Assembly (NCBI GenBank): GCA_964036045.1
Contig: OZ038378.1
Span: 74,090,001-74,154,000 of the forward strand
Direction: 5' to 3'
DNA: 64,000 nucleotides
DNA from: Eutreptiella sp. 'Long Island Sound 2002'
Lineage: Eukaryota; Protista; Euglenida
The notes under the pieces were generated by a model. The model was not told where the DNA came from. It did no database searches and worked only from the letters and a program-made list of their open reading frames with translations. Both the position numbers and the translations under genes were made by a program. Shown in pieces: positions 2,836 through 31,520 of the stretch (position 1 is the first letter of the stretch; each line of letters begins with the position of its first letter).

Positions 2836-3031
2836 GGTTTGCCTCCCGGCAACCGGGTCAGTCATGGGTATCAAACATGCCCTCCATCACCTCACGCCAC
2901 ACCTACCCCCACCACATCACCAGCTACGGTTCCACCAAGGGCAGCCGCTCGGAGACAACGACGCGACCCCGACCTCGACCACACACGGACCCATCCCCAT
3001 GACGTTGCGACTGGTGGGGCTGAAGGGAGGA
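2836..3031 (+). CDS. Ubiquitin-like domain ending in Gly-Gly (copy A)
   Basis: SVMGIKHALHHLTPHLPPPHHQLRFHQGQPLGDND...PMTLRLVGLKGG in ORF 2804..3631 aligns by eye to ubiquitin TIENVKAKI...IPPDQQRLIFAGKQLED...LHLVLRLRGG. Confidence 0.75.
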
Positions 3032-4399
3032 GGCAGCAGGTCACGCAGGGATACCGATGCTGACAGCACCAGCGACCGTGACAGTGACAGCCACAGCCGC
3101 CGGCAAAAGTCTCGGAAGCGCGGCTCCAAGGGCGAACTCACCCAGGCCCTGCGGGCAATGAGGTCCCTTGCGGACTTTGCAGCGGGAATGCGCCGATCCA
3201 TTCAGCAACCACCACAAACTGTGACACCCGAAGCCTCGGCACCACAAAGCATCAGCACAGACAGACACGGAGGCCAGAACCGCGATCCGGCTGAGTCGCA
3301 GCAGGGCGTACGTGAGCCACCGCAAACGCGTACGCGTTATTGCGTGAACATGGACACGCGCCAAGGTGAACGGCAGTTCCTCCTGCACGACCCCGGATAC
3401 CACCCCCAGCCCCGACCCCCCCCTCCAACCCCTATTGCAGAACCTCTGCGGTTTTACCGCAACCCCCAAAGCCCGGAAGTACCTTGCGCAGTCCCGGCCC
3501 TTAAACACGGCCACAGGGACATGACCCGACAGCCCCCCCCACTGCAGGCGGCACCACACATGGAGCCGATGGCGGCACAGCCGGCGCCTTACCACAGTGA
3601 AGCACCCCCCCCCACACCACAGACACAGTAAGGACCACAGACGCTGTACCCAGCAGTGGTAAACAGGCATGGTGGGCACGTAGTTCCAGGGGACAGGCCA
3701 GCGACATGGGCACATTTCAAGGAACAAAACGCCGCCGCCCTGGAAGTCCTCCGCACCGAGACCCGCGCGGACCCGGCCGGGGGCTACTTGTCGACGTGGC
3801 TCTCGTTGGAGAGGGCCCAACCACTGTCGGAGTACCCGCAAGACCCCCGTCACCAACAACCGTACTAGGGTAACTACGCGGCCTACGAAACGGAACCAGA
3901 AATGGGACACCCACAACAGCACCAACAGTTGTACTACGCACCAGACACATCGGCCTTCCATCCCCCCGCACACCCACCCGGCCCCGCCCAGTCCCATGGG
4001 GAAAGGGCGCAACAACACCAAGTGCACGCGGAACAGGCACCGGAGGACAAACTTGAGTTCTCCCGTTCACCGGAGGCTGGGACGTTGTGGCCGCACAACA
4101 AGGGCAGCAAGCACGACCAGGACAGCAGCGATGGAGGAGGCGCCGACCCAAGACCCACAAAGGGGAACCAGGGACGGTCGTCCCCAACATCCCCAGCATC
4201 GCACACAGACCAGCGCGACTCCGCGTCCCCTGACGTGCTCAGGGGGGTATGCGCATGCATGCGCATGAACGGGACAACTGTGCATGAAGGGGAACTTGCG
4301 ACCCTCACCAACCCTTGCCCCACGTGCTTCTCCACAGTGAGCAGCCGATACTGGCGTGAGGCCGGAGCGGACGACCGCGTTGACGATCCACGCCGCATG

Positions 4400-5150
4400 G
4401 ACGACCCGACGGCCGCGAGGGTTAAGAGTGGCCGACCGTAAGGACACGCCCACCGTGGCCTGCCCCAGACCACAATCATGCGCACGAGTGGCACGGGCAG
4501 CACAGGCCTAGACAGACTGGCACAGTGTCTGTGACGCATCATATGCATATGGCCCCGTAACGCGGCCATGCTGTGTGACAAGGACGACTCACATGGACGA
4601 CCCAACGGCCGGGTCACGAACGGCCGGTCGTATGGGCGCGCCCACCGCGGCTTGCACCAGACTGTAGCCACGCCTACGAACGACACAGGCAACACAGGCC
4701 CAGACAGACAGGCACAGCGTCCGGGACACATCATATACATATGGTGCCGAACTGCAGCCATGCGGTGAAGGAAGGACGGCATGCATGGATGACCCGACAG
4801 CCGCGGGGTCACGAACAACCGGTCGCATGGACACGCCCACCGTGGCTTGTACCAGACCGCAGCCACTCCTCCAAATGACATAGGCAGCACACGTCTAGAC
4901 AGACAGACACATCATATAAATATGGCTCCAAACTGCGGAGGCCATGCTGGGAGGCATGGACGGCAAGCACCGACGGCCCGACAGCCGCGGGGCTACAAGC
5001 TGCCGGTCATATGGACATGCCTACCGCGGCCTGCCCCAGACCACAGCCATGCCTACAAGTAACACAGGCAGCGCAGGCCCATATACACAGGCACAACTCC
5101 TCGGACGCACCATATACATATGGCCCCAAGCTGCGCAGGCCATGCTGTGA
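4400..5150 (+). repeat. Four ~190-bp degenerate tandem repeats inside copy A
   Basis: Units start gacgacccgacggcc (~4400), gacgacccaacggcc (~4596), gatgacccgacagcc (~4789) and gacggcccgacagcc (~4971). Each contains (c/t)accg(t/c)ggc(c/t)tg and cat(c)ata(t)...atatgg. Confidence 0.9.
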
Positions 5151-6725
5151 CGCACGAACGGAACACGCCACCACGCCTGCGACTGTGACCAACGAACATG
5201 CAGCTTGTGCACCATCTCTGCCCGTGTGGCGTTCTCAGAAACAGGCAGCCCCCCCCCCCCCGGGACAGCACGTCCCCCCTACGGGAGGGGAACTGCTCTG
5301 GAATCACCCACCACCCCGGCGACGGACACCCTACCCCTCCAACAAACAGCCGATCCACCCTTCCCAAACCAGGGTAACATGTGACCACACCACCGATGGG
5401 GATATCAAAAAAACCCGGGCCCCATTGACACACAGGCTGCAGAGGACGAAATCCCCCCCCACCACAAGGAGATGGTCACGCGACTGGCGAGCGAAATCGA
5501 AACGGCCTGCAACCCCCACTACCCCGTTAAACTATACAAATACGCGACCCAGGCACTCACAAAGGCACTCAACAGCAAGCGACGGGCACCCCCCCCCCCT
5601 AGACCACAACACGCACACACCACGCACGGAATCGGTGTCTACACATGGCACCTCAGAAGTACCATCACCAGAGGAAACCTCACCTCGCGGGATACATCTC
5701 CCAGGCACGCCACGCCCACCCACCCCAGACACATCCGAGCTTACCGTGCAAACACAAAACCACCACTCACGGATAGGACTGAACATGACCCCTGCCATCG
5801 ACGCGGAATGCCCCCGGTGCCACATGGCCGACTTCGTGTACTTCCGCTGCACTACGTCCAAGTACATCGCCATACACCAACCGGAAACCCCGGACATGGT
5901 ACCACGGTGCTTGTACAGCGTAATGTCCCCAAACACCCTGTACCCAAGACAAGGATCCTGGCAAGGAGCCGTGCCTGCAACCACTACACACACCTGCAGG
6001 GCGCCACACCCGCAGATGACGAGCCCACAGCCGACAACGATAGGCACCTCGAACGGGTGGATACACGACGTCACCAGCGATGGGGATGTTGAACCAAATC
6101 CCGGCCCCACCCCATTAGGCCCCTCGGCAAAACGCACACGTTACAACCAAGACACCCCACCCACGTACCGTACACCCAGGATGCTACGCAAACGTACCAC
6201 GGACAACCCGCCGCCTGCAACGTAAACACGGTATACCAAGAACACCGACCAGCAACACAGGTGGGCAACCACCACAAACGAAAAGCGGAAGGCGCACCTG
6301 CCCACCAACCTGCAGCAAAACGACACATGAGCACGACCCACTGGGACTGGGAGCAACACACCCCCGGAACTCAGGAAAACGTACGCCCGAAACGGCCCTA
6401 TGAGGACATCACGGAACATGTCGCGGCCGGTCCACCGCACAAAAAAATCCGCAAAACATAACGTCTACGTACCCGGCCCTACCCCAGACCAACGTGCTGG
6501 GTCCACGACCCGACGCACGATGGAGACACGGCTCCCAACCCGGGACCAACCTCGCCCGCACGAGTAGACCAAGCAACGCAAACCACAGCACTAGGCGACA
6601 CGGGGATAGAGGCTCACGACGCTTCTTCGCCGCCCCTGCGGGGGACACCACTCCCCCAACAGCCCGGCGACAACACTGCCACAAAAACGGGGAACGTCGA
6701 TGCAAGTGAGCAATTCGAAGAGGAC

Positions 6726-6836
6726 TGCCCCATATGCCTGGACCGCCCCGCAAACACAAGCCTAAGTTGTGACCCCGGGCACAGGCTGTGCCAGACCTGC
6801 GCCAACGACCGGAGACTACCGAGATCCCCAGTGTGC
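6726..6836 (+). pseudogene. C3HC4 RING finger (copy A; 7th ligand Cys replaced by Ser)
   Basis: Manual translation: CPICLDRPANTSLSCDPGHRLCQTCANDRRLPRSPVC. Confidence 0.8.
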
Positions 6837-7337
6837 CGCAGCATGCTGGAACCGAGGGTACCCCCCCCACCCCTGGGTGACCCAACATATGCGTACTTTT
6901 ACATACAAATATACAACAACCGGCTACTCACGTACAACTATAGTTTGCCCCCCGATCCGCCAATGCCGCTGGCATACAACATATGTAGCCAAATAACCAG
7001 CACAACAGGCCAACTGTGGGAGGTACACCCGAGGAATGATCTCCCCTACTGCCATATCGCAAGACACAGACTGCATAGCCTCACACACACAAGAGATGGT
7101 TTCCAGATGGCCATATCCATACGGTATGGGCTGTTTTTGGCCCACCCCTTACAGCATGACCTACTCCTAGAGTACGACATCACCGACTTGGTACCACCGG
7201 TCACGGACGTAGACCACCCACGGCATACACACCACAGTATAAACCCACACGCTACCCCAGACGTCACCTATCCACAGCACACCCAATGCGTCCTAGATGC
7301 CACACAGGACGGTGATGTGGAACCGAACCCAGGCCCA

Positions 7338-9960
7338 GACAACAACACCCCACCCCACGGCATGGTACACACCCGGGCGGAAAACTATGAAAGGAATACA
7401 TCCGGACTACATACCGACCATCGCGACCCAAAGGACGTAGAGGAAAGCCCCTTGGGCGTCGAGACCAACCCACACACCCCATTAGAGGACAACACGACAC
7501 GGGAACCCCCCTAGAACGGGGAATCTAACACACACCCCGACCACCACGCAGACGGATTTAGCTACTCCCCCCCACCCCCCCACGAGGACACATAGGCATA
7601 CACGTTCCACGAAGACGGCAATAACCCCCTAGATAACTCACCCATACACACACCAACGGAATACCACTTGATAGAGGAACTAGTAAAACTCAATACGGGA
7701 ACGCCACAGCAACCAATGACAACAATAGAACAGGAAACACTAAAAGCCTCATCGTATATGACGCACAGACCAAACTGAAAGCGTACTTAACAAAACACCC
7801 CGACCGTGCGGTGACCACAGAACACACTCGGCGGCAGACGCAAGAAGGGGTATGGTATGACAAGAAAACCTACCAACTCCCCCTGTTTACGCAACACACG
7901 CTGCGCAACGTCATGAGGGTCATACATGAGGCAGACTCTGACGGTATACACACCGTATCATAGATGGCCGAGGCACAACGGTTCACAGTCTACACAGAAG
8001 CCGACCATCAAGGGAACCCAGACATCCGGAACAAGACATACCTACTCCTACCAGACGCAACCGGGACCCGCCGCAACCATGACCGACCGATGCAACGTGC
8101 AGCCATACAAACGGAATGGGGCGGAAGTGAGGACGAACGAGTCCACCAAATCCTGCCTGCTCTCAGCGACCGAGGGGCCAAGGAACAGATTCTGGCATAC
8201 GAAGCTGACCGACAGGATTCCACAGCACTGCAGACCTACCGCATGGATTGCCTCCATCGTGCTCCACTATGGAAGCTAGCCCGCTACGTCAGAGGAGTAT
8301 ACCAATTCGACGAATTCCCCGCACGCAAGTGGTCCCCGGAACGAAACACCTTAGTCTACCACCTGCAGCCCACACCCATCATGGTCCTTCACCCGGACAA
8401 CACCAACAAGATGGGACACGAGCCCGCACACCAAACTTACACACTCACGAAGGGCACACCCATACAGGTGGGACTGGAGGACCGCAAAGATACACTACAA
8501 CCAGACTCGCCCAAGACTACGGTAGTGGTTGAGTGCCCACCAGAATTGGGCATTAGGACACGAGACGCATTTAGGAAACACATAAACGGACACCAGTCTG
8601 ACGTCGCCTCCACCATAGCAAGCAAGGACCCACACAACACCTTCTGGTGGAAGTGTGCCTCAGAACACACGGCGGGACAAAGTGGGTCGCACGCCTGGAG
8701 ACTACACCTGCCCATGCAACTACTGCCCAGACTGACGCAGGCACTGTAAACAATAAAAAAGGAAGAGGAAAACGGCGGAAACCCCGGACCCTAGTGGCTC
8801 ACTGAAACCGACTACGAAAGCCTATACATCCTGAGACAACAATGCACTGAACATAAAGAAGACAAAATCACATCGGTACAGGAAATCTTAGGCGACATAG
8901 ACAGGGAGTAGCTGGAGCTAGGAAGGAGCATCGCATCATTCCTCAAGGGCTTCCGATCAGTAGACTCCTACCGCCTCCTAATACAGTTTCAGCCAGACGC
9001 AGACCGACGCTTGATTGCCCAACTATTGAAGGGCATGAAAAGCTATGAACTGTTCCACGTAATGACCAACGTCATACTCAACCGCAACAACTGGACACAG
9101 TCTACAAGCCGCTCCAGGAACATCAAGCGGCCGCCCAAACCAACCAGAAGTGACGCCACGACGGTGTTCGTAGGGTGGACACAGCGCGCAGGAGACGACA
9201 CGGCGAAAGTCGTGGCATCCTTCTTTGGATGTTGGAGTAGTTGGAAGCCCGAACCCAACATGTGGAGCGAAGCAGGGTACACCTACGCCTCACTCCAATA
9301 CCAACATGCCACAGCAGTGGCCCTTAGCGCCGGACAGTACATCGGAGTGGCACCCGGTGAATACGTACACATAACACTATGAGACGACAAAACGGACACA
9401 CATGTTACCGAACGCATCGACCAGATGCTCTCGCACAAATTGCCGCACGAGATGGGCGACAACGTAGCATTCCGGAGAGGCATGAAGGCAGGGAAACAAT
9501 TGGGCGCGGACATGATGACAGAACGAGTCATCAGGGAAATCAACAGGGAAAAACAGCTCCTCGCGGAACCCGAACCCATCAACGTGGCGGGCTGGGACGA
9601 GGCCATCATGACAGAACTCGGTCATACTAACGACGACGTGCCACCAACGGACCTCCACCGGCACGTGACCACCATGGACACGGACGGACCCCACGACCAA
9701 CAATCCAACAACACAGACAAACCCGCACCCACACACCCACGACCGCCAAACCAGGCACAGAAAACGAAAGCCCACAACGAAACGCCGCAAAAAACACCCA
9801 CAAAGACGACACCGCCACCCAAAAAAAAAGAAGGCAACACGAACATCCCCACAAACCAACCAGCAAACGGATGGAACGGCTGCCTTCACCGCCAACACCA
9901 AATACAAAGGGAAAAGTAAGGGGCCGCCAAAAAACCCACAGGGCGAAGGAAAGAAGGGAG
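7338..9960 (+). pseudogene. ORF1-like core of copy A with RRM-like domain (~9161-9330) and basic C-terminal tail
   Basis: ORFs 7964..8749, 9011..9382 and 9425..9919 are pieces of one frame conserved in B and C. TVFVGWTQ...VVASFFG...AGYTYASLQY resembles RNP2/RNP1. Confidence 0.65.
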
Positions 9961-10479
9961 GTGCCTTTTCCTCATGCCCTTCATCGCCATAATGGCCCTC
10001 CACCTACTCATGGTGCCCACCACACATACAGAGGGACCAGTGCTCCTGCTCCCTATGATACAGAGAGCACGCAGGAGGGACACCCCACCCCTACGACACC
10101 GGCACGGCAATAAGCGGGACCCAACCCCTCGCAGCTACCGTATGTGGCGGCCCTGCTTGTTACTACTCTATATCGCCTGCTTCTTCCACACCCCGACCGC
10201 CCCTAACACAAGGGTGCCAAGCCGCTACTACCGCACACCGGTATCCACCACTACGGTAACCAGCCCCCACAACACACGATACGACAACAATTGGGTCCTC
10301 CAATGCGGGGACGTTCACCCCAACCCCGGACACCAAAGGATATACCAGCTCCGGCGCGATTGCCGCAACGTGCCGGGACCCCCCGTCCCGCTTCTTGACA
10401 TAGAGGAATACTAACAGCACCTGGTGGTCAACACAAACCGACGGTAAGACACTCGAGATGACACGACCAACGCAGAGGA

Positions 10480-11160
10480 CCAGGACAGGAAACTGGCCGG
10501 CTCGAACATACAAGGCGCACAGGGCTCTGTCACCCTACAGCGCTGGGCCAGTGTCCTCCACCTAATGAGCCAGTGTCGTATCGACTTTTGCGGCATTCAA
10601 GAATAGAACCCGTGCTTCCCTATGCCGGAGGCAGCCACAACAGCATTCAACATTAACTATAAGTGCTAGGCTGCGAACGAGCCACGAGTAGCATTCATCG
10701 TCCGCAACACTGTGGTCTCCCACGTCCTCGAAACGTTATACTCACCTAACGGATCAGCGGGGGCCAGCAGGCTGCAGCTCCCCAATAGCCCCCGCCGGAC
10801 CATAGCGTGCGTGTACTGCAAATTCAGCCGCCAGGACAAACAAGAGGTAGACCTCTTCCTGTAGTCCCTCCAACCATATGACATTATTATGGGGGATTAC
10901 AATGATTACATCTCGTCGTCAAACCCGACACAGCCGTGGCAGGAAGACCTAGCCAACAGCGTGTTCCTCGACCCATTACACGCCAGTAGCTAGCCGCCCG
11001 ACCCCCGGCAATACTACACCCGCATACCAAGGCATGGACGACCACGTCGCCAGGACGCCATATTGGTTAGGCAACAAATACCCAACATACCCTGGACCTA
11101 TTATGACACAACACAAATGCCCATACCAGATCATAGTCTGGTCCCCCTTGGCATCCGCTG
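10480..11160 (+). pseudogene. Apurinic-like endonuclease (EEP) domain, copy A
   Basis: KLAxxNIQG...GIQE, MGDYND, R.DAILVRQ and PDHSLV motifs, interrupted by stops. Confidence 0.85.
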
Positions 11161-11833
11161 GAGGATAGGGGCACCCGACCCACTCCGCAGAAAACCGCAG
11201 CCCACGGTCTCGAAGTTTTGCACCACACACTTCCAACGCTTTGCCAACTCCATATCCACCCTACCCGTAAAGGACACCGACCCACCCCCACACACAGCAC
11301 GGCACATCCTGTCGGCAATCGCACACACGGCACGACCACGGCACTATACACGCACTAGGACGCCAACCACGGCAATCTGCTCGGAAACCTCGGATCCCAG
11401 GGCACGGTTACGCGAATACGGGGAAGCACAGGAGCACCACATACGGAAACAAATCGGCAAACTCCGCCGGGCAGCAGTGCACAGATCCGGATACCTCTAT
11501 AAAATGGTCAAGAGGTGGCGCACCGGACTCATAGCACAAGACACGCCGCGGCCTTCCATAGGAGGAACACAACACATCCTGAACCACTTTGCGGGCGACC
11601 CAACATACGACGATGACACGTGCCAACGACTGATACGAAAACATGTACGCCACCACACATGGAACACCACGACCCCAACATACGAGGAGAACCTGAGGTG
11701 CCTGCTGGCACCAAAGAACAAATCAGCCGGACCCGATGGTGTACCTCCGCACCTGCTCCGGCACCTACCTAACCACATACAGCAACAACTGTACCAGGCA
11801 ATCATCGCAGTCTGAAACGGACAAAACATCCCA

Positions 11834-12973
11834 GTGGCCTGGCTGCAGTCAAGGGTAGTGCTCATTTACAAAAAGAAAGACCCCCAGGACCCACGAAACT
11901 ACAGGCCGATCTACGTTTCCAGAGCCATATATAGCATACTCACACGTCTCCTCCTGACGCGCATATCTAGAGCCATGACCCCGGGACTACTAGACATGCA
12001 ACACGGTGCCATACAGGGCCAAAACACCACGACCCTAGCCACAAGACTACTCAACGACTTACACACACAAGACGGGTACGTGGCCCTCCTCGACGTAGCC
12101 AAAGCTTTCCCCTCGGTCCCTCAACTAATGCTAACTGGGATCGTCAAGGAGGCAGGGGCACCAGAAAACATCATACGGATGCTTGGAGAGATATACCAGC
12201 ACACACCGGCCGTATTGACCGTCCACAGACGGGACCTCCCCATACGTCCCACGAGGGCCATGAATGAGGGGTGCCCCCTCTCCCCAACATTATTTCTCTT
12301 ATACTACGACATAATACTTAGGGAAACCAAAGAGCGTTGCCCGGGAGCCCACCTATACATGTTCGTCGATGACATCGCGGTGCGCGCACCCACGAAGAAA
12401 TCGCTACTTCACACCCTAGACACACTCCACGAAGTGGCATACACAATGGGGCTACGCTTCAATAAGGCCAAAACCGAAGTATACCACTGTGCTAAGGACT
12501 ATAGCCTAGAACCTATCACATGGCAGCACCAATTGATCCCCGTGCGGCCACCTATATTGAGGTACCTGGGTCACGTTCTAGCCCATCCCACACAAGAAGA
12601 CATAGTGTGGGACATGGTGACCGCACAATTGCACCACGTTATAGCGGCTTACAGGACCCTACCGCTTAACACCTACGAAAAGGTTGCCATCATAAACGCC
12701 GTCCTCATCCCTCGATGGACCTACAGGGGGCTATTCTTCGGGAACAGAGCACGGATAGCTCTATGGGACGACATACTCCTACAGTACAACAGGCACACAC
12801 CCGGGATAGAACAACAAATGAACAAGCACCGACTGACTACCAACCTCAGCCACGGGGGACTAGGTCTACGTCAGTTATGGTGGTCCTACATCACCCGGTG
12901 GGTTACACTTGGGCAGCAAGAGGTGCAAAACAAGGGCCCCACACAACATCTCACCGCCACCGAGTATAAATAG
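11834..12973 (+). pseudogene. Non-LTR reverse transcriptase, copy A (largest intact block)
   Basis: VVLIYKKKDPQDPRNYRPI, LLDVAKAFPSV, EGCPLSPTLF, LYMFVDD, GLRFNKAKT, YLGH, HGGLGL. Confidence 0.95.
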
Positions 12974-13254
12974 GTTGATGTTGTCCGAGCCCTAGGGGGC
13001 ACGGTGGGTCAGCGCATATCCCAACCCAGGCAACACCAGCCCCTCTCGGCGGGCCTATACGACTCAGAGAGCTCGGAGGAGGACCAGGAGACACACGCCG
13101 GGAAAACGCGGCCGGCTACCAGCCGTCTGGACTATGGCTGGATAAACCCACCGGACGAGCCAGCCACAGAGGAAACCCACGAGGTCTACTAGACACTACC
13201 GCACCAACAGAAGATCCATGGGATCACTGTACACTACACGGGAGAACCCACCAC

Positions 13255-13680
13255 CACGAGGTGGTATACTGATGGGTCGAGACGACACGGACGAGCGGGA
13301 GGGGGCATATACAACGGAAACTACTGCGCAGCATTTCGGGTGCACGGCCCCCAGCAAGTGTATCGGGCCGAGACAATCGCATGCGCGTTGGCTTCTGAAC
13401 TGGCCAGACCAGGGGACGACATCATACTTGACAACCAAAGTGTGGTTAACGCCACACCTCTAAAACGAAAAGGGGTAGTCAAAGACTAGGACTACCGCGA
13501 CATAGGCTACCACAACACCTCTTCGAAGCAATTGACGATACGCTGGACTCCAGGGCACTGTGACGATACGCTGGACTCCAGGGCACTGTACCGTTGCGCA
13601 AGCCACCACGTATAACGACTACCGGGACATTCAGGGGAACAACCACTCCGATGTCCTAGCCAATATCGGCGACAACCTGC
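13255..13680 (+). pseudogene. RNase H domain, copy A
   Basis: WYTDGSRRHGRAGGGIY, YRAETIA, IILDNQ, IRWTPGH, GNNHSDVLA. Frameshifted by a 28-bp duplication. Confidence 0.85.
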
Positions 13681-17899: not shown

Positions 17900-18700
17900 A
17901 AACAGGTGAATACCTGAAGATTATCAACCCATATAGTGGCCAAAGCGGCCATGTCATTTTCCCCGCACACGGCTATCCCGATCACCGGGTGTGCAGGCCC
18001 GTTTGCCATGGTTGAGGAGCCCAATAGATAGTTAGGTCCAACTCCCACCAGCGCACGAGTATGGATCCCCACGTAGAATAAACGTGAGGGGCCGCGACCA
18101 ATTGATGGTGTCCACTTGTGGTGGATGCGATTTCAGGTATTGCACCCATGACTGCAACGGCCAACTGCTGCCGCTGTCAGCTGGCTCACAAACGGACACG
18201 GCTGGGCCCAACTCGAGGGGCTTGGCCAATTCCTTCCACCTGTCCAAGTACTCACCACGCGAAGGTTTTGGGCCGCGGGAGCTTGAGGCCGGTAGCGGCC
18301 GTGTACGCCGCCCCTCTCCGGGTCATGAATGCGCAGATGTGGCCGATTCGTGTCTTCGGGATGTTGAGCTCCACGAGAAGCCCGATGAAATTTCACACAA
18401 CAAAGAGGAGGGAGGCATATTCCTTTAGCACCGCTATTTGCTTGTCGCGAATGAGGGAGGGTTAAGCACCCATTGTGGCCTCCGCCCAACAAGCCTTGGC
18501 CAAGGGGGGTTCAGCCACCCACACACTGAGGAGTTGAGAAACCAAAGGGTTTCGCAAACTCTTGGCACCACTCACACACACAAGCGTCATGCTAAGCTGG
18601 AGAAGAGTATCACGAGAAAAAGACATAACAAGAGTTTCAGAGGAGAAAATAGGTGGGGAATGGGGTGGAAGGCGGACCCTAGGGAAGGGGGTGGGGGGCC
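17900..18700 (-). pseudogene. Unclassified transposase-like coding remnant; second copy split as 47288-47458 plus 50284-50900
   Basis: High DNA similarity to the two segments of the TIR element. The minus strand translates to YASLLF...NFIGLLV.LNIPKTR...YLD.WKELAKPLE...SWVQYL...DTINWSRPL.FILRGD.YPCAGGSW. Confidence 0.55.
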
Positions 18701-19319
18701 GAGGTTTGGAGAGGATCACGCTGACGTGCCGATAGCTGCGGAATTAAGATCGACCGGCGATAAGCCGGACGGCAACGCCGGGGAAACCAGCCCATGAGTT
18801 ACTGACACATCATATAACTAAGGCCACCCTGAGGTGAGCCCGCGCCTTAAGGACACGTCCACTGCGGCCTGCCACAAACCAAGGATGCCGTGCCTGCGAG
18901 AGGTACGGCCAGAGATGGGCCAGGCTACCACGCCAGTCGGTGTGGAAACGGCCGACGGCCCCCAACAATTACCACGACACGCCGAGGTAGGAGAGGCCCA
19001 GACAGGCAGACACAACCACCATGGGGTGTGCTATCGCCCTAAGGCCGCAGTGCCCTGGTGTTTGCAGGGCACCGCACACTGCGACGACCGTGAACAGACC
19101 GCAATGCGACTGTGATCAGCGTATATGTGACTCGTGCACCACCTATACACGTTTGTGATTGTCAGCAACAGGCATAGGCCCCCCTCCCAGGGCAAACCCC
19201 CCCCTCCCCCAGGGGGGCTCACGCTGGAGTGGCCCACTACCCGCCGAAGGGCACCCTACCCCCTTAACAAGCAGCAGATCCACCCCACCCAAGGTAGGAA
19301 GACACGCGACCACACCGAC

Positions 19320-22300
19320 GACGGCGACATCGACAAAAATCCTGGCCCCAATGACCCACAGGAGGGAGAGAGTGAAATCGGCTCCCAACACAGGGTGACA
19401 GTGACGCGACTAGCAAGTGAGACAGAGACGGCCTCCAACCCCCACTACCCCGTTAAACTATACAAATATGCGATCCAGGCACTCTCGGAGGCACTCAAAA
19501 GCAGACATCGGGCCTTCACCCCCCCCACCACCACCAGAAAACACCACACACACACCACGCACGGAATCGGCATCAACATACGGCACCTCAGAAATACCAT
19601 CAGCAGAGGCCACCCCATCACATAGGATACAATACCCAGACACACAGCACCCGCCCACCCCAGAGACATCGGACACAACTGTGCGAACACAAAAGCATAG
19701 CTCGCCGACGGGGTTAAACATGACCACCGCCATCGGCGTGGTATGTCCCCGAGGCCACATGGCTGATTTTGTCTACTTTAGCTACACCACGTGTAAAGAC
19801 TTCGCCATACACCAGCCAGACACCCCAGATATGGTGCCGCGCCGCCTGTACGGAGTAATGTCCCAAGACACCGTGCACCCAAGGCAAGGATCCTGGCAAG
19901 CTGACGAGCCTTCACCCACCACGCACACCTGCACGGCATCACAGCCGCAAGCAGCGACCCCCCAACCAACAACACTAAACACCACGAACGGATGGGTACA
20001 CGACGTCACCAAAGACCGAGACGTGGAGCTCAATCCTGGCCCCACTTCACCAGGACCCTCGGCAAAACGCACATCCACAACCTGGACACCCCGCCCACAT
20101 ATAACACGCCCCCGATGTTACACAAGCGTACCGCGGACAACCCAATGATGGCAGAACACAAACGACGACGCTCAGGGGACGTGGAGATAGCATACGAAGA
20201 GCACCAGATACAAGCACAGGAGTGCACCCTCCGCAAACGCAACTCAGAGGACACACTAGACCACCAACCTCCGACAAAACGGCAACCCAGCGCGACCCAC
20301 CGGGGGTGAACAACACGCCCCCGAGATACAGGGCAACATACGCCAAAAAAGTCCCTTTGAGGACACCATGCAAAATGCCGTGATCGAACCACCAAACAAA
20401 AAGATACTCAAAACACCACGGCTTCGTAACCACCCCTACCCAAGGCCGCCGAGATGGCTTCACGACCCAACACAGGATGGGGAAACGGATCCAAACCCTG
20501 GACCAACTCCACCCACACCAGTGGACCAAGCGACACAAACCACATCACTGGGAGATTCAGGGATAGAGACACACGACATCCCACCCCCACCACCCCCGCA
20601 GGCGGCACCTCCCCCCCAACAACCGGACAACCACACTACCTCCAAAACGGGAAAAACGGACACAAGGGAACAGCCCCGGGAGCTCTGCCCCATATGTATG
20701 GACCGACCTGCAGACACAAGCCTAAGCTGCGACCCCAGGCACAGGGTGTGCCGGACATGTGCCAACGATCCCCAATTGCTTAGGTGCCCATTGTGCTACC
20801 GCATGCTGGAACCGAGCGTACCTCCCCCCACCCCTGGACGACCCAATGTATGAGTACTGCTACATACAAATATACAACAACCAACTACTCCCGTACACGG
20901 GCTAGTACCCATAGCCAGTACCGTAGTGATATGGCCATATGGTAGCCATCTATTGTGCCCGTCAAGGCGTTTTTAGTTTGTGTTGCGCAGCTGCGTAGCA
21001 GGGGAGTCATTCCTCACGTGTACCTCCCACAGCTGTCATGTCGTGTTGGGGGCTTGCATCCATACGTTGTATGCCGGCGGCAGTGGGGGGCCGGGGGACG
21101 TACTATAGTTCACCCCTTACAGCATGACCTACTCCTGGAGTACGACATCACCGACAGGGTGCCTCCACCTGCGGACGGAGACAACTACGACACATCACGC
21201 AGCACACTGCTGACCGACACGTTGTACCGAACGAAACCTACCCATAGCACACCGAATCGGTCCTAGGTGCCACACAGGATGGTGATGTGGAACCAAACTT
21301 GGGCCCAGACAACAACACACCACCTCACGGAGTGGTACGAACCTTGGCTCAAAACTACGAACGAAACTCATCCGGGCAGAACCCTAAAATACACTGCCCG
21401 GGAGAATTAGACGAAACGCCCCTGGTAACCCAAAAGACAAACCCACATCCCCCACTAGAGGACAACACGGCACAGGAACTCCTACAGAACGAGGAGCATA
21501 GGCGCCCCTCCGACCACCGCGCAGAGGGGTTTAGCTACCCCCCCCCCCCCAAGAGGAGACACAGGCAAACACCTTCCACGAAGACGACAGCAACCCACTA
21601 GATAAGCTCCCCATACACACACCAACGGAGTATCATCTAATAGAAGTATTGGTGAAACTCAATACGGGAAAACCACACCAACCGATGACCACGACAGAAC
21701 AAGAAACACTAAAAACAGTGGTGATATGCGACACACAAACTAGATTGACTGCATACCTTACTAAATCCCCAAACCGCGCGGTAACAACGGAACACATCAG
21801 GCGGTAGACGCAAGACGGGACATGGTATGATTGGAATACCTACCAGCTACGCCTGTTTGCGCAGCATACGCTGCGCAACGTCATGACGGTAGTGCACGAA
21901 GGAGACTCCGACGGCATACACACAATACATGAACTGCCCGAAGCAGAAGGCACACAGTCCACACAGAAGCCGAACATCAGGGGAACCCACACATCGCAAA
22001 CAAAACATACCTACTCCTACCACAAGCAACCGGAACCCGTCGCAACCAGGACCGACGGATGCAACGCGCGGCCATACAGACGGAACGGCGCGGAAGTGAG
22101 GACGAACACGTCGACCAAATCCTTTGCCCTCACCGACCCAGGGGCCGAGGAACTGCTCATGGTGTACGAAGCAGACGGACAGGATGCCACAACCCTACAG
22201 ACTTACCGCATGGACTGCCTGCATGGGGCTCCGCTACGGAAGCTAGCCCGCTATGTCAGAGGAGTTTATCAATTTGATAAATTCCCTGTACCCAGGTGGT

Positions 22301-24285
22301 CTCCGGAACCGGACAGCCTGGTCGACCATCTACAGCCCAAACCCATCATGGTCCAGCACCTGGACAACACCATCAAGATGGGCCATGAACCCGCACACAA
22401 AAGCTACGCCCTCACAAAGGGCACGCCAATACAGGTAGGACTGGAGGATCGCAGAGATACTCTGCAACCAGAACCAGCCAAAACTACGGTCGTGGTTGAG
22501 TGCCCACCGGAAACCGGCATTAGAACACGAGACGCCTTTATGAAACGGATCAATGGACACGAGTCTCATGTCGCTTCCACCATAGCAGGCAAGGACCCAC
22601 ACAACACCTTCCGGTGGAAGTGTGCCTCCGAATACACCGCGGGCCAAAGTGTGCCACTCGCCCGGAGGCTACACCTGCCCATGCAGCTACTACCCAAATT
22701 TACGCAAGCACTACAAACAATCAAACAAGAAGAAGAAAACGCCAGAAACCGCGGACCCTACTGGCTCACTGAAACCGACTACGAGAGCCTGTACATCCCA
22801 CAACAACAATACACGGAACACAAGCAAGACAAAATAACGTCCGTCTGCAAATCCTGGACGACATAGACAGGGAACAATTGGATCTAGGAAGGAGCATCGC
22901 CTCCTTCCTTAAAGGCTTCCGACCAGCCGACTTCTACCGCTTACTAACAAAGTTTCACCCTGACGCAGACCGACGCTTGATTGCCCAACTACTGAAGAGC
23001 ATGAAAGGCTACGATTGGTTCACGTGATGACGAACGTCATACTGAACCGAAACAGCTGGACACATTCGACAAGCTGTTCCAAGGACATCAAACGGCCACC
23101 CAAACCAGCCAGATACGATGCCACGACGGTGTTCGTTGGGTGGACACAGGGCGCGGGCGACGACACAGCAAAGGTCGTAGCATCCTTCTTTGGATGCTGG
23201 AGCAGTTGGAAGCCCGAACCCAACATGTGGAGCGACGCGGGCTGCACCTATGCCCCGCTCTAGTACCAACATGCCACAACAGTGGCCCTCAGCGCCGGAC
23301 AATACATAGGAGTAGCGCCCGGAGAATACATACACCTAACACTAGGAGACCATAAAACGGACACACAGGTAACATAACGCATCGACCAGATGCTCTTACA
23401 AAGGATGCCGCAAGAAGCGGGCGACGACGCGGCATTCCGGAGACGCATGAAGGCAGGAAAACAGCTGGGCGCAGACATGATGACATAGCGAGTCATCCGG
23501 AAAGTCAACCAAGAAAAGCAGCTGCTCGCAAACCCCGAACCCATCAACGTGGCAAATTGAGGCGAAGCCATCATGACTGAACTGGGCCATTCTAATGACG
23601 ACATGCCCCCAACAGACCTCCAACGGCAACTGGACACGATGGACATGGATAGACACCTCGACAAACAACACAATGACACGGGCCTACCCACACCGGCACA
23701 CCCACGAACGACACACCAGGCGCAGAGAACAAAGGCACACAATAAAACCCCACAAAGACGACACCGCCACCAAAAAAAGAAGAAGAGGACGCCGGCATCC
23801 CCAAAGCCCAACCAGAGAACGGACGCCACCTCCGCATTCACAGCAGAAACCACACTCAAAGGAAAAGGGAAGGGACCGTCAAAGAACCCACGGGGCAAAG
23901 GAAAAAAGTGAGGCCCCTTTTCTTTTTGCCCTTCATAGCCGTAATACCCCTCCTCCTCCTCTTGGTCCCCACCACACATATGGAGGGGCCCGTACACCTG
24001 CTCCCTATGATACGGAGAATGCGCAGGCGGTATACCCTACCACCCCGCTACCGGCGCAACAACAAGCAGGATCTTGCCCCCCACAACTACCGGATGTGGC
24101 GCCCCTGCTTGTTACTACTCTATTTTGCCTGTTTATTCCACACACCGACCGCTCCCAGCACAGGGGTGCCAACCTACTACTATAACGCACTAGTCCCAAG
24201 CACTTCGGGGATCAGCCCAGATAACACACGCGACAACAACAAGTGGGTCCTCCAATGCGGAGACGTACATCCCAACCCAGGACAC
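19320..24285 (+). other. Five 2A/StopGo-like motifs in copy B
   Basis: 19320-19349 DGDIDKNPGP; 20014-20043 DRDVELNPGP; 20476-20505 DGETDPNPGP; 21278-21307 DGDVEPNLGP; 24256-24285 CGDVHPNPGH. Confidence 0.85.
20686..20796 (+). CDS. Intact C3HC4 RING finger (copy B)
   Basis: CPICMDRPADTSLSCDPRHRVCRTCANDPQLLRCPLC in ORF 20368..20853; all 8 ligands present. Confidence 0.9.
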
Positions 24286-27200
24286 CGGAGGATATACCAG
24301 CTCCGGCGCGAGTGCCGCCCTGTGCGAGGACCCCCCGTCCCTCGCCACGACATAGAGGAACACGCTAAGCACCTGTTGGTTAACACGAACCGACAGTACG
24401 ACAGCCTGGACAACGTGACCAACGACCAAGACCGAGACATGAAACTGGCCACCTGGAAGATACAAGGCGCGCACGGCTCCCTTACTCTACAACGCAGGGC
24501 CAGTGTTCTCCACCTTGTCAAACAATGTCGTATCCACCTCTGCGGCATTCAAGAGTATAACCCGTGTTTCCCGCTGCCGGAGCAGCCACCACCGCAATCA
24601 ACAACGTCTACAAGCGCTACGCTGCACCAAGGAACGAACCACGCGTCGCATTCCTCATCCGCGACACTGTGGTCTCCCATGTCCTCGAAACGTTATACTC
24701 ACCTAACGGACTAGCGGGGGCCATCAGACTGCAGCTCCCCAATAGCCCCCAGCGGACTATAGCCTGCGTCTACTCCACATTCAGCCGACAAGACAAAAAA
24801 GAGGGAGACCTCTTCGCACAATCCCTCCAGCCATACGACATCATAATGGGGGACTGCAATGACGACATATGGTCGTCCGACCCGACAAGCCCTTGGCAAC
24901 AAGACCTAGCCAACAGCGTGCTTCTCGACCCGTTACACGCAAGTAGTCAACCGCCCGAGCCCCGACACTACTACACACACATTCCAAGGCATGGACGACC
25001 ACTTCGCCTGGACGCCATATTGATTAGGCAACAAATAACCAACATACCCTGGACTTACTACGACACTATCCAAATGCCCATATCGGACCACGCCCTTGTT
25101 TTACTCGGCATTCGCTTGGAGGATAGGAGCCCCTAACCAACCCCATAGAAAACCGTAGCCATCGGTCTCGAGGTGGTACACCACACACTTCCAGCGCTTT
25201 ACCAACTCAATCAGCATCCTGTTGGCTATCGCCCACGCGGTACGGCCACGACACCCTAAATGGACCAAGACGCCAGGCCACAGCAACGTGGTCGGAAAAC
25301 CCAGGTCTCAAGGCGCGGCTACGGGAGTTTGGAGAGGCTCAAGAGCACCACTTTCGGAAGCACATTGGCAAGCTACGCAGAGCGGCGGCAACTAGATCGG
25401 GTTACTTCTACAAAAAGGTCAAGAGGTGGCGCACCGGACTCATTGCGCACGACACGCCACAACCTCCGATTGGAGGAACACAACACGTCTTGAACCACTT
25501 TGCCGGTGACCCAACATACGACGAGGACACGTGCCAGCGACTGATTCGGAAGCATGTACGACACCAGACATGGAACACATCCACTCCAACATACAATGAA
25601 TACGTGAAGTGCCTGCGGGCGCCAAAGAAAAAAACAGGCAGACCCGATGGGGTACCACCCCACCTGCTCCAGCACTTACCCAAACACATGCTGAAACAGT
25701 TATACCAGGCAATAATTGAAGTCTGGAACGGGCAAAACATCCCAGTCGCCTGGCTGCGGTCAAGGGTAGTGCTCATATGTAAAAAGAAGGACCCACAGGA
25801 CCCACCAAATTAGAAGCCGATATACGTATCCACCGCCATATATAGCATCCTCACACGCCTCCTCGTGATGCGTATATCTAGGGCCATGACCCCAGGACTA
25901 CTTGACATACAACACGGGGCCCTACAAGGCCGCAACACCACGACCCTAGCCACAAAGCTACTAAACGACCTACACACTCAAGACGGGTAAGTGGCCCTCC
26001 TAGACGTAGCCAAGGCATTCCCCTCGGTCCCCCCACCAATGCTGACCGGGATCGTCAAGGAGGCAGGGGCACCGGAAAACATGATACGAATGCTCGGGGA
26101 AATGTACCAGCACACGCCGGCCGTACTGTCCCTGCATGGACCGGACCTCCCCATACGCCCCACTAGGGGCATGAAAGAGGGGTGCCCCCTCTCCCCAACA
26201 TTATTCCTCCTGTACAATGACATACTACTTAGGGAAACCAAGGAACGATGCCCCGGAGCCCACCTTTACGTGTTCGTCGATGACATCGTGGTACGCGCAC
26301 CCACGAGGGACTCACTCTTGCACACCCTAGATACACTCCACGAAGTGGCACATACAATAGGGCTACGCTTCAACAAGGACAAAACCGAAGTGTACCACTC
26401 GACCGAGGACTATAACGTGGAGCCAATCACATGGCATCACCAGCTGATCCCCTTGCGGCCACCCATAATGACTTACTTGGGCCACGTACTAGCCCACCCC
26501 ACACGGGAAGATACCGCGTCGGACATGGTTACCACAAAAGTGCAGCACGACACAGCGGCGTATAGAACCCTGCCGCTTAACGTAGGTAGCCATCATCAAC
26601 GCCGTCCTCATCCCACGATGGACGTACAGGGGGCCGTTCTTCGGGAACAGATCCCGGATGGCGCCATGGTACGACATGCTCCTACATTACATTAGGGACA
26701 CAGCCGGGATAGAACAACAAATGAACAAACACCGACTCACAACAAATCTAAGCCACGGGGAACTAGGCCTACGACAACTGGGGTGGTCCTACATCACCCG
26801 GTCGATCACACTGGGGTAGCAAGAACTACAAAACAACGGCCCCACACAACAACTCACCGCATCCCAATACAAATATATCGACGCCGTCTGAGCTCTAGGG
26901 GGCACGGTGGGCCAACGCATATCCCCACCTAGGCAGCACCGCCACCTATCGGCGGGCCTATACGACTCGGAGAGCTCGGAAGAAGACCAGGAAACAAACG
27001 CGGGGAAAACACGGCCGGCCACAAGTTGCCTAAACTATGGCTGGATGAATCCCCCCGACGAACCAACCTCAGAAGAGACCCTTGAAGTGTCCCAGGCACT
27101 ACCACACCAACGGAAGTTCCACGGGATCACCATACATTACACAGGAGTACCCACCACCACAAAGTGGGATACAGACGGGTCAAAATGACAAGGAAGAGCG

Positions 27201-29100
27201 GGAGGGGGCATATACAATGGAAACTACCGCGTAGCGTCCCACGTGCATGGACCTCAACAGGTTTACCGGGCTGAAACAATCGCCTTCGCGCTTGCCTCCG
27301 AACTGGCCAGCAAAGGGGACGAAATCGTACTTGACAACCAAGGTGTGGTGAAAGCCACCCCTACAAAACATAAAGGGGTAGTCAAAGACCAGGACTACCG
27401 CGACATAGGCTACCACAACGCCTCCTCGAAACGACTCACCATACGATGGACTCCTGGGCACCGCACCCTCGTAAAAACAACCACGTACAACGACTATAAG
27501 GACATAGGGGGGAACAACCACTCCGATGTGCTTGCGAATATGGGCGACAACCTGCCCATGGATTCCCAACAACCACAACCCCATGATATTGTCATCATCG
27601 GACAAATCATGCCCACGACTGCAAAGGCATGGATTATGCAAGTGCGTAGACAAAAACATACCCCGGAAGTATACTCGGTGAGCTAGCTCCCCATGAAACA
27701 TTACAGACGAAACGCGTGGACGCCATGGCTCTGGGGACAGTAAGGTGGTGGGGAACAGGTGCCCCGTGGGAGCGGTCCCCCACCCTATGCTCCAAATGTG
27801 GCCAACAACACGGGGCGTCGGTGCAGTCAAGAGTAGCGTACTGCCCCGCCTGGGGTGCATTCTCGGACCTGTGGCGCAGGAGGTGGACTGACTGGGCCCA
27901 GCACGCCTGCCAATGGCGAAAAACGGCCACCAGCCTTGAACTCTGGGTATGTGCCAGACCACTCATCCCGCTGGCCCTCATCAATGCCATCCCCACCACA
28001 GAAAGACACAAGCTACGGGCAGAGGTAGGCCTCTTTCAGTTCCGCATGATCCAAGCCGTCCAAACCCTAAGGCAGAAATTCACCGACCCCACACCGCAAC
28101 AGCTGCCATCACCCCTATGGCTGACTAAGTTTGTTGCGCAAACACTACCACCACGAGAAACGGCACAAAACCTACGCAACCACGTCGGAGCGCCAATGCG
28201 GTGCGATAGGAAACGTAAATGCAAGGCCTAGCTCGCGACAACGGAACCCATAGACCCCAAGCTGTGGCTCCGGGAGGCGCACGCTGCAAACGACGACAAG
28301 GCGGTGGCATGGGTTTTGAGCAATCACGAGGCAAACACGTTGAATCAGGAAGATCAAACTCAGAAGCGTCGACGCCTCGATGGTGATGCTAGCGTTGGAA
28401 CATTACCTAACGGCTTAGACAAGTTGGCAAAGGAGCACGCGCAACGCGCCCACAACGCGTACTGCAGCGCACACACATCAGAGGTAACACGGCGGCACCT
28501 ACGCGAACTACGCACAATATACGCCAACCCACGAACAGCCAAAACAGAATACCACCCCCTCGTGTCAAACGTGATCAAAGAATATGTAGCGGCACAACGA
28601 CTACACAACACATATACAACAATGTGCCAGGAACGCCGACAATGCTACGAACAGGCAAATCGCGACACAATGAAATGGTACGCGGACGTGAAAACATCAC
28701 TCCTTCCATACAAAAGATATGAGAGAATGTGCACAGACACCAACTTGCTGCTGGCCCACCACATGCGACAGGCACATTACACGTGGCGTCAATAGGAACA
28801 CATCATGAACTTGACGCAGGGGTTCAATAACAACTGCCTGCACAAAACAACACTATACTGGGACGCATCCACACAAGATCACCAGACAATATACCTCATA
28901 CGGAAACAACCATAGGAGCAATGGGACCCCATCTTGTGGGAAGTCTCATTACAACCCTTACCAAAACGACACAAAGCGCACTGGGATCCAAACGAGTGGG
29001 AAATCCCGCTAACACGACCACACCCACCTCAACGGGAAACCATGGGGGCCCAGCCACGAGCTGAAGCCCGTATGCACACCCTGGCACTGCCGAAATCTGT
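23908..29100 (+). pseudogene. ORF2 of copy B: hydrophobic leader - 2A-like - APE (24440-25115) - RT (25745-26800) - RNase H (27165-27560) - Cys/His knuckle (27788-27844) - C-terminal domain
   Basis: KLATWKIQG...CGIQE, MGDCNDD, LRLDAIL, PISDH; ALLDVAKAFPSV, GMKEGCPLSP, LYVFVDD; WDTDGS, RWTPGH; CSKCGQQHGASVQSRVAYC. Confidence 0.92.
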
Positions 29101-30739
29101 ACTTAGCTTTGAACGTGGCCCACAGCGGCTCCTGGCTCATTCTGAACCGTCCTATTTAATGAGAAAAAAAAACAAGTCATCTCTCGTAGTTAATGGCCAT
29201 GGCGAAAACGGTGCAACACGATATAAAAACAGGTAATCTGCAAGAGACGCGATGTCACTCGCAAGAAGAGGTGAAGTGTCAAAGGTTTTGGGCATCGTGC
29301 TAGGGGAACGGCACGATTGCATCCGTGGCGGAGGGCGATTCTTCTCGTGTTGTCTTTCGGAAGATCGTAGGGTGGACTTTGAAGTGGCCGTTCATTTGAT
29401 CAACGCGTGTTGTGGTGGCGATCTTATGCCATACAACAGGCCAAGTGCTGCAAGTGATCTCAAGTCATGTGCATCAGCAACACCAGCTGGGACGGGATCG
29501 GAGGCACTAAGTAAACACGTCCCTGCGCAGCGGAGAGCTCACTTTCTGAGTGTCTTTTTTTTGTCGTTTGACCCTCCATGCCCGTTTTGCCCGGGGAACG
29601 TGCCCCAATCGCCAATAAGAGGTCGTGCTCTCACATCTGACATGAAGTCCAAGCATCGTGCTATGGCAGGGCCTTGGGCCTTTTTCTTGACGATAGCCCT
29701 TTGGGAAATTAGGGGACACGGCGTACCGGGACCACTCCGGCAGGAGCCGGATATTGCCTACCCCCCAGGGGAACCCGTACTACCCGCCCTGTCGCACACC
29801 TTTCGCTTTATAAGCATGGGGAATATGACATCGTCCCCCGGGGCTGCAAACCGGGGTCGCAGCAGGGCGTCACCATGCAGCTCTGCCGACATCGACTTCA
29901 AACCACCAGCCCCAAACCTATAAGCAGGCCGAGATCAAATTTCCCATGGGCTCGATGGCACACTCCTGGCTGCGTCACCCACAGGCTACTCGGAGGACGA
30001 CGACGACCGACCCGCGAGGACAGCTGCATCACCAGCTGCTGGCCGAGGGAGTTCTCTGGATTGGCACAACACTAAGACCAACGCCCGCCGGACAACCTAC
30101 GAGGACCCAGTACCCCACGGATCTGATGGGCTGCCCCTGGAGGCATTAGCTAAGGACCATGCAGGAGATGACACCGTGAAATCCGCCAGGGCCGCCGCCC
30201 ACAAGTTTGCCAACCAAGGGGAATCACTAGAGCGAAATGGGACCGAAATCGCTGATCGCCGAGCAACCTCCAAAGACGCAGTAACCCAGAGACTCGATGA
30301 GATGACGCTGGGCTCGCCTACCAACGACCAGTCGGAGATCAACTTTGTCCAGTCAACGCGGAGCCCCGAGACTGAGGTCAACGATCACTGGGTGATCTAT
30401 GAGAGTATGGACAAGATGACGTTATCAAGGACCCCATCATTCCGGGCGCACAGCCGATTGCAATCAAAGATGGGATACGATCCAGCATTCCGAGGACCAA
30501 CTGGTCAACCGCAGAACGCCCTGCACAACGACGGCGCCCATCAAGCACCTGGAGGCCCTACGCAAGCAGCCGCCAACGTGGGTGACCTTCTGGACCGCTG
30601 CGAGCTTGAGAATGACAGCCGCGTCACCAGGTATGTGCACCCTCTAAACGTAGGCCGTGACCCGACGTGTGTACGTCAGAGAGTCACGACACCCGCACTG
30701 ATGGTGACGCTACGTCCTCCGAACTATAACTCAAAAGAT

Positions 30740-31091
30740 AACAGCGGAGCGGAGCCCTGCTCCCCACCATCAACCCACACAGAACCAATATCACATGAAG
30801 ACGCAACGGACGACCACAAGATAACACATGGTGGGGTGGAGCGGTGGTCCCCGCCGGAAAACCGGACTATGACCACGGTGCGGAGCCCTGCTCCCCGTCC
30901 AACACGACGCCGGAACCTCATACGCAATTGCGACGGCGGTGCGGAGCCGTGCTTCCCGTCAATTTCACACACAACACTAACAACATACAAAAACAACATA
31001 TCAAACCATGGACAAGTGAACGGTGGAGCGGAGCGCCGCTCCCCGCCAAGAACGTGCACCCTGACGACGGTGCGGAGCCCTGCTCCCCGTC
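30740..31091 (+). repeat. Two ~190-bp tandem units, each with three gcggagcc(c/g)tgct(c/t)ccc-type motifs
   Basis: Motifs at ~30745, 30835, 30880, 30940, 31025 and 31070; cggtgcggagccctgctccccgtcc occurs identically twice. Confidence 0.8.
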
Positions 31092-31307
31092 CATGGCACT
31101 ACCCAAACCACACCGTGGACGTCACGTATGACCCCACGAAGGGGCCAGACCAACAACTGGGCCTACACCCCGTGTTGATCGTGACACCGCGGCTCTTGCA
31201 ACTCTCGCAACGCTTACAATCTAGGAATTGTCGTAACACGGCCTTCTCACATCGCATCCACCCCTTCTTGCCAACCCACCTTGCGTGGCACTGTAGGTGG
31301 GCTGATC

Positions 31308-31520
31308 GTGAGCGGCGCCGGACCCCCGGTTTGCCTCCCAGCAACTGGGTCAGTCAAGGGCATCAAAAATGCCCTCCATCACCTCACGCCTCACCTACCC
31401 CCACCGCAACACCAGCGGCTGTTCTACCACGGGCAGCCGCTCGGAGACAAAGACCCAACCGCAACGACAGCACACGGACCCGTCCACTTGACGTTGCGTT
31501 TGGTGGGACTGAAGGGAGGA
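31308..31520 (+). CDS. Ubiquitin-like domain ending in Gly-Gly (copy C)
   Basis: LIVSGAGPPVCLPATGSVKGIKNALHHLTPHLPPPQHQRLFYHGQPLGDKD...PVHLTLRLVGLKGG in ORF 31281..31835. Confidence 0.8.

Follow-up and report, generated by a model that had tools for sequence, protein, structure and literature searches.

A 64,000-nucleotide stretch of the Eutreptiella sp. 'Long Island Sound 2002' genome (assembly GCA_964036045.1, contig OZ038378.1, positions 74,090,001 to 74,154,000 of the forward strand; hereafter the window) contains three decayed copies, A, B and C, of one non-long-terminal-repeat (non-LTR) retrotransposon, or long interspersed nuclear element (LINE). Its long reading frame includes a ubiquitin-like (Ubl) domain with a Gly-Gly (GG) end, which only copies A and C reach (Table 1). 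The carrier is an APE-type element: an apurinic/apyrimidinic (AP) endonuclease is followed by a reverse transcriptase (RT), and we find poly(A), a target duplication and 5'-truncated copies. No target duplication was found for copy B, and the best target-duplication word for copy A sits in flanking GT-rich repeats. Copies A and C are 82% alike over their aligned block, with similarity beginning at 2835 and 31327, respectively. We considered this shared start as the 5' end of the element and rejected it, because the family and copy C extend further 5'. An earlier note on this DNA had given 2836-31520 as the span of the domain seen in copies A and C. The motif is present in both A and C, but that span joins two separate copies, with copy B, which has no such domain, between them.

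In copy C the end of the domain reads HQRLFYHGQPLGD...HLTLRLVGLKGG, with the GG codons at 31515-31520; in copy A (2834-3031) it reads HQLRFHQGQPLGD...PMTLRLVGLKGG, with the GG codons at 3026-3031. Both copies encode the motif, the Ser/Asp linker and the basic patch (RRKKSRKR in C, RRQKSRKR in A) where the earlier note had placed them, and the tail in both is GGG rather than GG alone. Copy A starts at 2835 within strand 2; strand 1 is absent. The frameshift just ahead of the domain in copy C lies near 31302: family proteins fit one frame up to 31297 and another afterwards, and the other copies have no base at 31302. At the domain's first codon (31297-31303) stands a pyrimidine-AG|G text that resembles a splice acceptor. 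In assembled contigs from three runs, loose ends diverge upstream of this text, with the AG retained.

A beta-grasp (ubiquitin-like) fold is predicted for the domain, and the prediction is a firm one of its kind. The AlphaFold2 model, built on a 27-row alignment, has strands at residues 17-21 and 27-30, a helix at 35-45, and strands at 55-59, 62-64 and 78-84; block values of the predicted local distance difference test (pLDDT) are 70-86 across residues 21-90 and about 70 in the tail. Foldseek ranks ubiquitin first for this model (target template-modelling score 0.74-0.78 for single-domain chains). VIA, a re-comparison of Foldseek's list and not an independent search, gave Z 11.3 for FAT10 (root-mean-square deviation (rmsd) 2.0, 73 residues aligned) and Z 10.1-10.3 for ubiquitin chains, with overall rmsd of 1.4-2.0 Å over 67-73 aligned residues. 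Every named match in the ESM Atlas belongs to the ubiquitin clan, and 30 of 31 sequence matches to solved structures are of ubiquitin or NEDD8 type. The proposal of a ubiquitin-like domain in the earlier note is thus upheld by AlphaFold2, Foldseek and VIA. By the curated cut-off the domain is not a member of the Pfam ubiquitin family: PF00240 scores copy C at E 3.4e-4 and 20.8 bits, under the cut-off of 25.4, and does not match copy A; it matches 22 of 27 aligned family members at E<=1, all under the cut-off. Identity to ubiquitin is about 22-25%.

Comparison of copies A and C indicates that the reading frame through the domain is under purifying selection. The ratio of nonsynonymous to synonymous substitution rates (dN/dS), which rests throughout on two decayed copies, is 0.39 over the 63 codons of the domain (p=0.02), with 8, 4 and 14 differences at the first, second and third codon positions. 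It is 0.20 in the linker and 0.17-0.19 in the RT. Domain and linker together give 0.32 with zero stops, versus 1.15 and 2.08 in the other plus frames. A minus frame with dN/dS of 0.34 was rejected as coding, as it shares third positions with the plus frame and meets 4 stops. Could the domain be a mere passenger, a captured scrap retained only since the frame must stay open? We think this very improbable. Leaders of the family do contain decayed host scraps, and the estimate comes from two copies and 63 codons; against this, two low-complexity stretches near the domain have dN/dS of 1.05-1.06, and the fold persists despite the low identity to ubiquitin.

The Gly-Gly tail is widely retained. Homologue searches gave 7 + 21 proteins, all from source 'ena', and cluster look-ups brought the family set to 95, among which 53 contain the domain and 46 cover the tail. 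The tail reads GLKGGG in 39 of the 46 and once each GLKEGG, GLKRGG, GLLGGG, GLKGGD, GLKGGS, GPKGGG and FPKGGG. Both glycines are kept in 44/46, and the second in all 46; conservation of GG in further copies, on which the earlier note had staked its case, is therefore found. L-x-G-G, with Leu four residues ahead of the proposed cut, occurs in 40 of 44 distinct sequences. GG cells vary in 2/92 cases versus 294/3491 in the domain body (p=0.015), in counts that are not independent, the copies being kin. More telling are P0007 and P0008. In these two diverged proteins, with 62% and 56% identity across the query region, two residues are inserted ahead of a GLKGG that is intact. The distance between the QRL motif and the second Gly is 37 residues in 37/44 sequences and 36 in 4/44; ubiquitin has 36. 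In the superposed model the last strand lies two residues further on than in the sequence alignment, and the first Gly falls over ubiquitin Gly76 in three rows (GG at about +1). We infer a slipped last strand and a tail rebuilt to a length close to that of ubiquitin. Assembled contigs that cover the tail come from one study, at 6-8 per run, and are too sparse and too heavily filtered for counting; the one change listed among them is synonymous, at 31508.

What stands in front of the domain differs from copy to copy. The first in-frame ATG of copy C lies 553 codons before the domain, which is therefore internal in the frame. Across 29170-31300 the leader frame has 2 stops, versus 29 and 29 in the other frames, and none of 2000 shuffles of 29924-31302 (0/2000) gave such an open frame. 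None of 24 homologue N-terminal leaders matches that of the window; 23 of these 24 link to one another as a mosaic. In five homologues a spliced-leader-like translation comes first, and behind it stand at least three different starts. The chlorophyll a/b-binding family PF00504 is found upstream of the domain in 4 of 14 scanned homologues above cut-off, and in 2 more below. Decayed chlorophyll a/b-binding fragments lie in the leaders of P0012, P0030, P0075 and P0076 (weaker in P0011 and P0016), on different contigs. Such fragments are probably captured host mRNA. Among 11 full-cover members, in a query-biased comparison, identity is 0.915 in the domain, 0.914 in the linker and 0.875 in the following helix, versus 0.78-0.82 upstream. 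At the head of copy C, one base past the left target duplication, stands a copy of the euglenid spliced leader, identical at 25 of 28 bases counted by hand. Since copy C begins with the leader, the RNA that was reverse-copied into it carried one and was probably trans-spliced. The host is probably a photosynthetic euglenid.

These observations suggest a mechanism. A host deubiquitinase may cut after LKGG and free the conserved polyprotein body from its variable leader; this is the reading we favour, at about even odds. The element's RNA would undergo trans-splicing, and its translation would start at the first suitable AUG. Captured pieces of host mRNA, some of them light-harvesting-like, would renew the 5' ends. 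After translation, an enzyme of the ubiquitin-specific protease (USP) type would cut LKGG|G, and the conserved body would receive a fixed N-terminus regardless of the leader in front. The freed fragment would begin GRRS, hold the basic patch (a possible nuclear signal) and end at the first 2A-like site, ~700-760 residues on; ribosome skipping at the 2A-like motifs would yield further pieces. The domain itself was probably captured long ago from a host ubiquitin-family gene. An origin from SDE2 was rejected, as no SDE2 family appeared in Pfam scans. Put together, a promoter-independent euglenid LINE would renew its 5' end with fragments of trans-spliced mRNAs of the host, a captured Ubl with slipped last strand and rebuilt LKGG would serve as a host-cut adaptor that discards the leader, and with five 2A sites a 4,500-residue polyprotein would be processed much as in RNA viruses. 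This composite picture is tentative, and taken whole it is rather more apt to fail in some part than to hold throughout.

The earlier note had proposed, as one of two functions of the domain, a second processing point of the polyprotein. The position of the domain, after a variable leader and before a conserved body, lends support to this claim, and the features of the tail weaken it. In sequence alignment HLTLRLVG pairs with ubiquitin HLVLRLRG, which places Leu at 76 and GG three residues beyond; two VIA rows, both C-terminally retracted ubiquitin mutants, also align in this register (+3). Counted from the element's own GG, the position of Arg72 is Gly in 45/46, not Arg, and cleavage of SDE2 depends on the corresponding Arg (PMC13572447). 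The GG cells (2/92) are not significantly less variable than other glycines (24/391; p=0.097), and conservation in the domain region looks inflated, the homologues having been retrieved with that region as query. A Thr/Pro run replaces ubiquitin's short-helix region. With five 2A-like sites there is less need for another split. The domain-bearing homologues are all 'ena' gene predictions, perhaps of one assembly, in which predicted splicing could have joined some leaders. Finally, the family also shares ~210 residues ahead of the domain, so that the domain does not directly border the variable part. All of these points tell against cleavage by a host enzyme.

Several of them would suit a domain that is never cut. 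An integral Ubl could serve in docking, with the proteasome, p97 cofactors, a USP or an E2 as partner, and set turnover or location of the first polyprotein piece, with the glycines as a flexible linker. The tail outside the ubiquitin register by sequence, the absent Arg72 equivalent in the GG register, the glycines not significantly better kept than others, a linker and helix conserved about as well as the domain, and the QRLF/Y-G strand pair retained in the family all agree with docking. L-x-G-G, however, persists past the two-residue insertion in the diverged subfamily, the distance from QRL to the tail is within one residue of that in ubiquitin in 41/44, and integral Ubl domains, to our knowledge, usually have no GG end. 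On balance we find uncut docking somewhat unlikely, if a serious competitor to cleavage.

The other function offered in the earlier note, a Ubl modifier or decoy delivered by the element, now appears less likely. Here the cut domain would be activated by host E1 and E2 and attached to proteins, perhaps via the element's own RING, or would occupy host deubiquitinases. E1 reads Arg72 of ubiquitin, and the domain has no equivalent; ~550 residues would stay in front of it; a typical member has only three lysines, none at ubiquitin 48 or 63 by our alignment; and the RING scores are under cut-off. The GG end and the RING-like domain in the same frame would fit such a role, as would the Josephin or OTU deubiquitinase domains borne by other LINEs (bioRxiv 10.64898/2026.06.17.732966). 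Overall, we consider a modifier or decoy improbable.

Table 1. Features of the LINE copies in the window (positions within the window; A, B and C are the copies).
Feature	Position	Strand	Remarks
Copy A	2835..15284	+	5' cut inside ubiquitin-like domain; poly(A) at 3' end
Copy B	18844..29169	+	5'-truncated; short inversion 20899-21109 relative to A and C; no ubiquitin-like domain
Copy C	29538..44408	+	full-length, 14,871 bp including 1.3-kb hAT insert; decayed (frameshifts, stops); flanking target duplication, poly(A)
Left target-site duplication of C, 17 bp	29521..29537	+	18-base pattern: 2 window matches vs 0.01 expected
Right target-site duplication of C, 17 bp	44409..44425	+	3' of poly(A)
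Euglenid spliced-leader copy at head of C	29539..29566	+	25/28 bases match leader printed in PMC3621762
Leader part of long frame, C	29642..31301	+	about 553 codons; one internal stop at 29921; first ~1 kb unlike other copies' leaders
5-bp palindrome with 3-base spacer, five copies	30751..31086	+	GGAGC-NNN-GCTCC; four exact, one with one change
Ubiquitin-like domain, C	31305..31520	+	ends LKGG; one-base frameshift near 31302 just 5'
Ubiquitin-like domain, A	2835..3031	+	strand 1 missing; ends LKGG
LKGG-G tail, C	31509..31523	+	predicted site; proposed cleavage after second Gly
Downstream of tail, C: Ser/Asp linker, basic patch (31587-31610), predicted helix	31524..31691	+	
2A-like motif 1 (C)	33650..33679	+	DGDIEKNPG|P, exact; B 19323 region; frameshifted in A
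2A-like motif 2 (A)	6079..6108	+	DGDVEPNPG|P, exact
2A-like motif 3 (A)	6519..6548	+	DGDTAPNPG|P, non-canonical
RING-finger-like domain	6720..6842	+	PF21362 E 7e-5, PF13920 E 1.6e-4; under Pfam cut-offs in A, B
2A-like motif 4 (A)	7308..7337	+	DGDVEPNPG|P, exact
2A-like motif 5, before endonuclease	10307..10333	+	ends NPG-H (non-canonical); deleted in C
AP endonuclease domain (B)	24618..25091	+	PF03372 E 7.5e-7, above cut-off
Reverse transcriptase (A)	11870..12577	+	PF00078 E 4e-24
RNase H-like region (B)	27189..27683	+	no Pfam match in window copies; family member P0102 under cut-off (E 0.0016); P0040, a distant relative, over it (E 4e-7)

The whole frame comes to about 4,557 codons. It runs from the leader through the Ubl-GG, an acidic linker, the basic patch, a helix and Pro/Gln-rich repeats to a first 2A motif; then follow a Cys-rich piece, two 2A motifs, the RING, another 2A, unassigned domains, the 2A-like NPG-H, the endonuclease, the RT and the RNase H-like region. 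In P0017, P0060 and P0076 a single predicted protein spans from the domain to the first 2A-like motif. Between the first 2A-like motif and a point beyond the RNase H, most of the frame changes seen are indels that a single copy carries. In 7,494 majority columns the best frame contains 1 stop, common to two copies; the others contain 97 and 48. The segment 5177-6936 can be read in a single frame, and one indel in it, near 6347, is ambiguous. Five 2A-like motifs lie in one frame (copy A 5394-10333 and the matching places in B and C), and motifs 1, 2 and 4 fit the consensus D(V/I)ExNPG|P exactly. Motif 5 ends NPG-H in the family and NPG-P in the distant relatives P0039 and P0041, and may no longer skip. 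The best matches of the RT among solved structures are R2 (E 5e-22) and then L1 (E 2e-11).

A protease encoded by the element itself is another candidate for the cut at LKGG, and again a very improbable one. Coronavirus papain-like proteases, which cut LxGG sites, offer a model, and so unusual a tail would be in keeping with a dedicated enzyme. At A 7600-8400 a stretch of about 270 residues has no domain assignment, and LINEs that bear proteases exist (bioRxiv 10.64898/2026.06.17.732966; PMC8557442). Against this, Pfam scans of 30 window frames, 14 further proteins and 15 long family members gave no protease family; nor did these scans turn up a Josephin domain or a restriction-like endonuclease, with unassigned domains remaining. 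For A 7964-8746, AlphaFold2 reached a pLDDT of 32 and the ESM Atlas gave no usable match.

Processing of a polyprotein by host deubiquitinases has precedents. In a pestivirus a truncated ubiquitin inside the polyprotein is cut by cellular hydrolases (PMC8310069). The LINE resembles cytopathogenic pestiviruses with ubiquitin or Ubl insertions in having an internal ubiquitin-type unit after captured host sequence; the pestivirus unit defines the N-terminus downstream. The pestivirus insertions, in contrast, are near-intact, recent and sporadic, with cleavage demonstrated, whereas the LINE has a fixed domain with low identity and an altered, putatively cleaved tail (PMC8310069, PMC13517609). A small set of permissive host USPs releases the divergent Ubls SDE2 and Fubi from their fusions. 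Like SDE2 and the Fubi-S30 fusion, the LINE carries a divergent Ubl with GG, and its RL-x-G-x-KGG resembles the GGKGG site of SDE2; unlike it, these Ubls are N-terminal and in ubiquitin register, and SDE2 keeps the Arg72 equivalent (PMC13572447, PMC10611586).

Among retrotransposons, the element is like L1Tc, Ingi and the 2A-bearing members of CR1, L2, Rex1 and Crack in having one frame, where a 2A-like motif precedes the AP endonuclease and RT. The element's single frame, a trait of Ingi and L1Tc, is supported piecewise, and its motif before the endonuclease ends NPG-H. Those elements have one 2A at ~40-80 residues from the N-terminus, whereas here there are five motifs, a Ubl and a RING; the word ubiquitin is absent from the main text of that report (PMC3708506). 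With Dualen/RandI and other Josephin or OTU LINEs the element shares a polyprotein with ubiquitin-system modules and 2A-like motifs; those carry a protease, whereas this LINE carries a possible substrate and a RING, with no protease in Pfam scans (bioRxiv 10.64898/2026.06.17.732966; PMC8557442). SymbioLINE-Dnmt is another LINE from a protist whose captured host domain evolves under purifying selection, but its cargo is a methyltransferase in a separate ORF (PMC5890265). LINE 2A motifs, and LINEs with Josephin or OTU domains, are thus already in print (PMC3708506; bioRxiv 10.64898/2026.06.17.732966; PMC8557442). A LINE with a ubiquitin-like cleavage substrate was not found in the literature searched. 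If cleavage by a host deubiquitinase is real, it would explain how the element tolerates arbitrary captured in-frame 5' sequence, tie a retrotransposon to the polyprotein strategies of RNA viruses, and provide a natural test of deubiquitinase tolerance to a shifted tail.

Relatives with the domain appear confined to the family in the collections searched. Among 1.84 billion representatives there were 23 matches: 10 family members, 12 multi-ubiquitin proteins, which score by their repeats, and 1 unrelated repeat protein; none of the 23 is a second LINE lineage with a ubiquitin-like domain. No related locus was confirmed among 303 pattern matches in metagenome contigs and 44 in viral contigs. 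Literature searches that covered listings and abstract openings, mostly of non-subscription papers, listed no LINE bearing a Ubl domain. Two distant RT relatives, P0039 and P0041, start just 93 and 165 residues before their 2A motif and are uninformative on the domain.

The leader of copy C also contains a repeated palindrome, which the rest of the window lacks (0.07 occurrences expected). In family proteins it is translated in two frames, and most of its variation falls in the spacer. It is likely a nucleic-acid signal, either a protein-binding site or an RNA hairpin within coding sequence. The GxEPCSPP text upstream of the domain was considered as a decayed 2A and rejected, being this DNA palindrome read in two frames. 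Most homologues also have a hydrophobic stretch ~130 residues ahead of the domain.

Other pieces of the polyprotein were recognised by eye: a four-cysteine zinc-ribbon-like piece (5700-5850) between 2A sites 1 and 2, and two pieces resembling RNA recognition motifs (8500-8750 and 9150-9380) before the endonuclease, neither with Pfam support. Two hydrophobic stretches lie directly before the last 2A-like motif (9920-10200) and are present in distant relatives too. The Pro/Gln-rich part contains tandem units of ~190-200 bases (4395-5161 in A, 32970-33306 in C), in differing copy numbers. Rfam gave no match in the window. Inside copy C, at 42440-43768, lies a fragment of a hAT-type DNA transposon with short inverted ends (PF05699 E 5.5e-13). 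Other repeats, unrelated to the LINE, occur twice in the window, at 640-1113 and 46740-47220, and at 17928-18698 and 47286-47458, 50284-50893.

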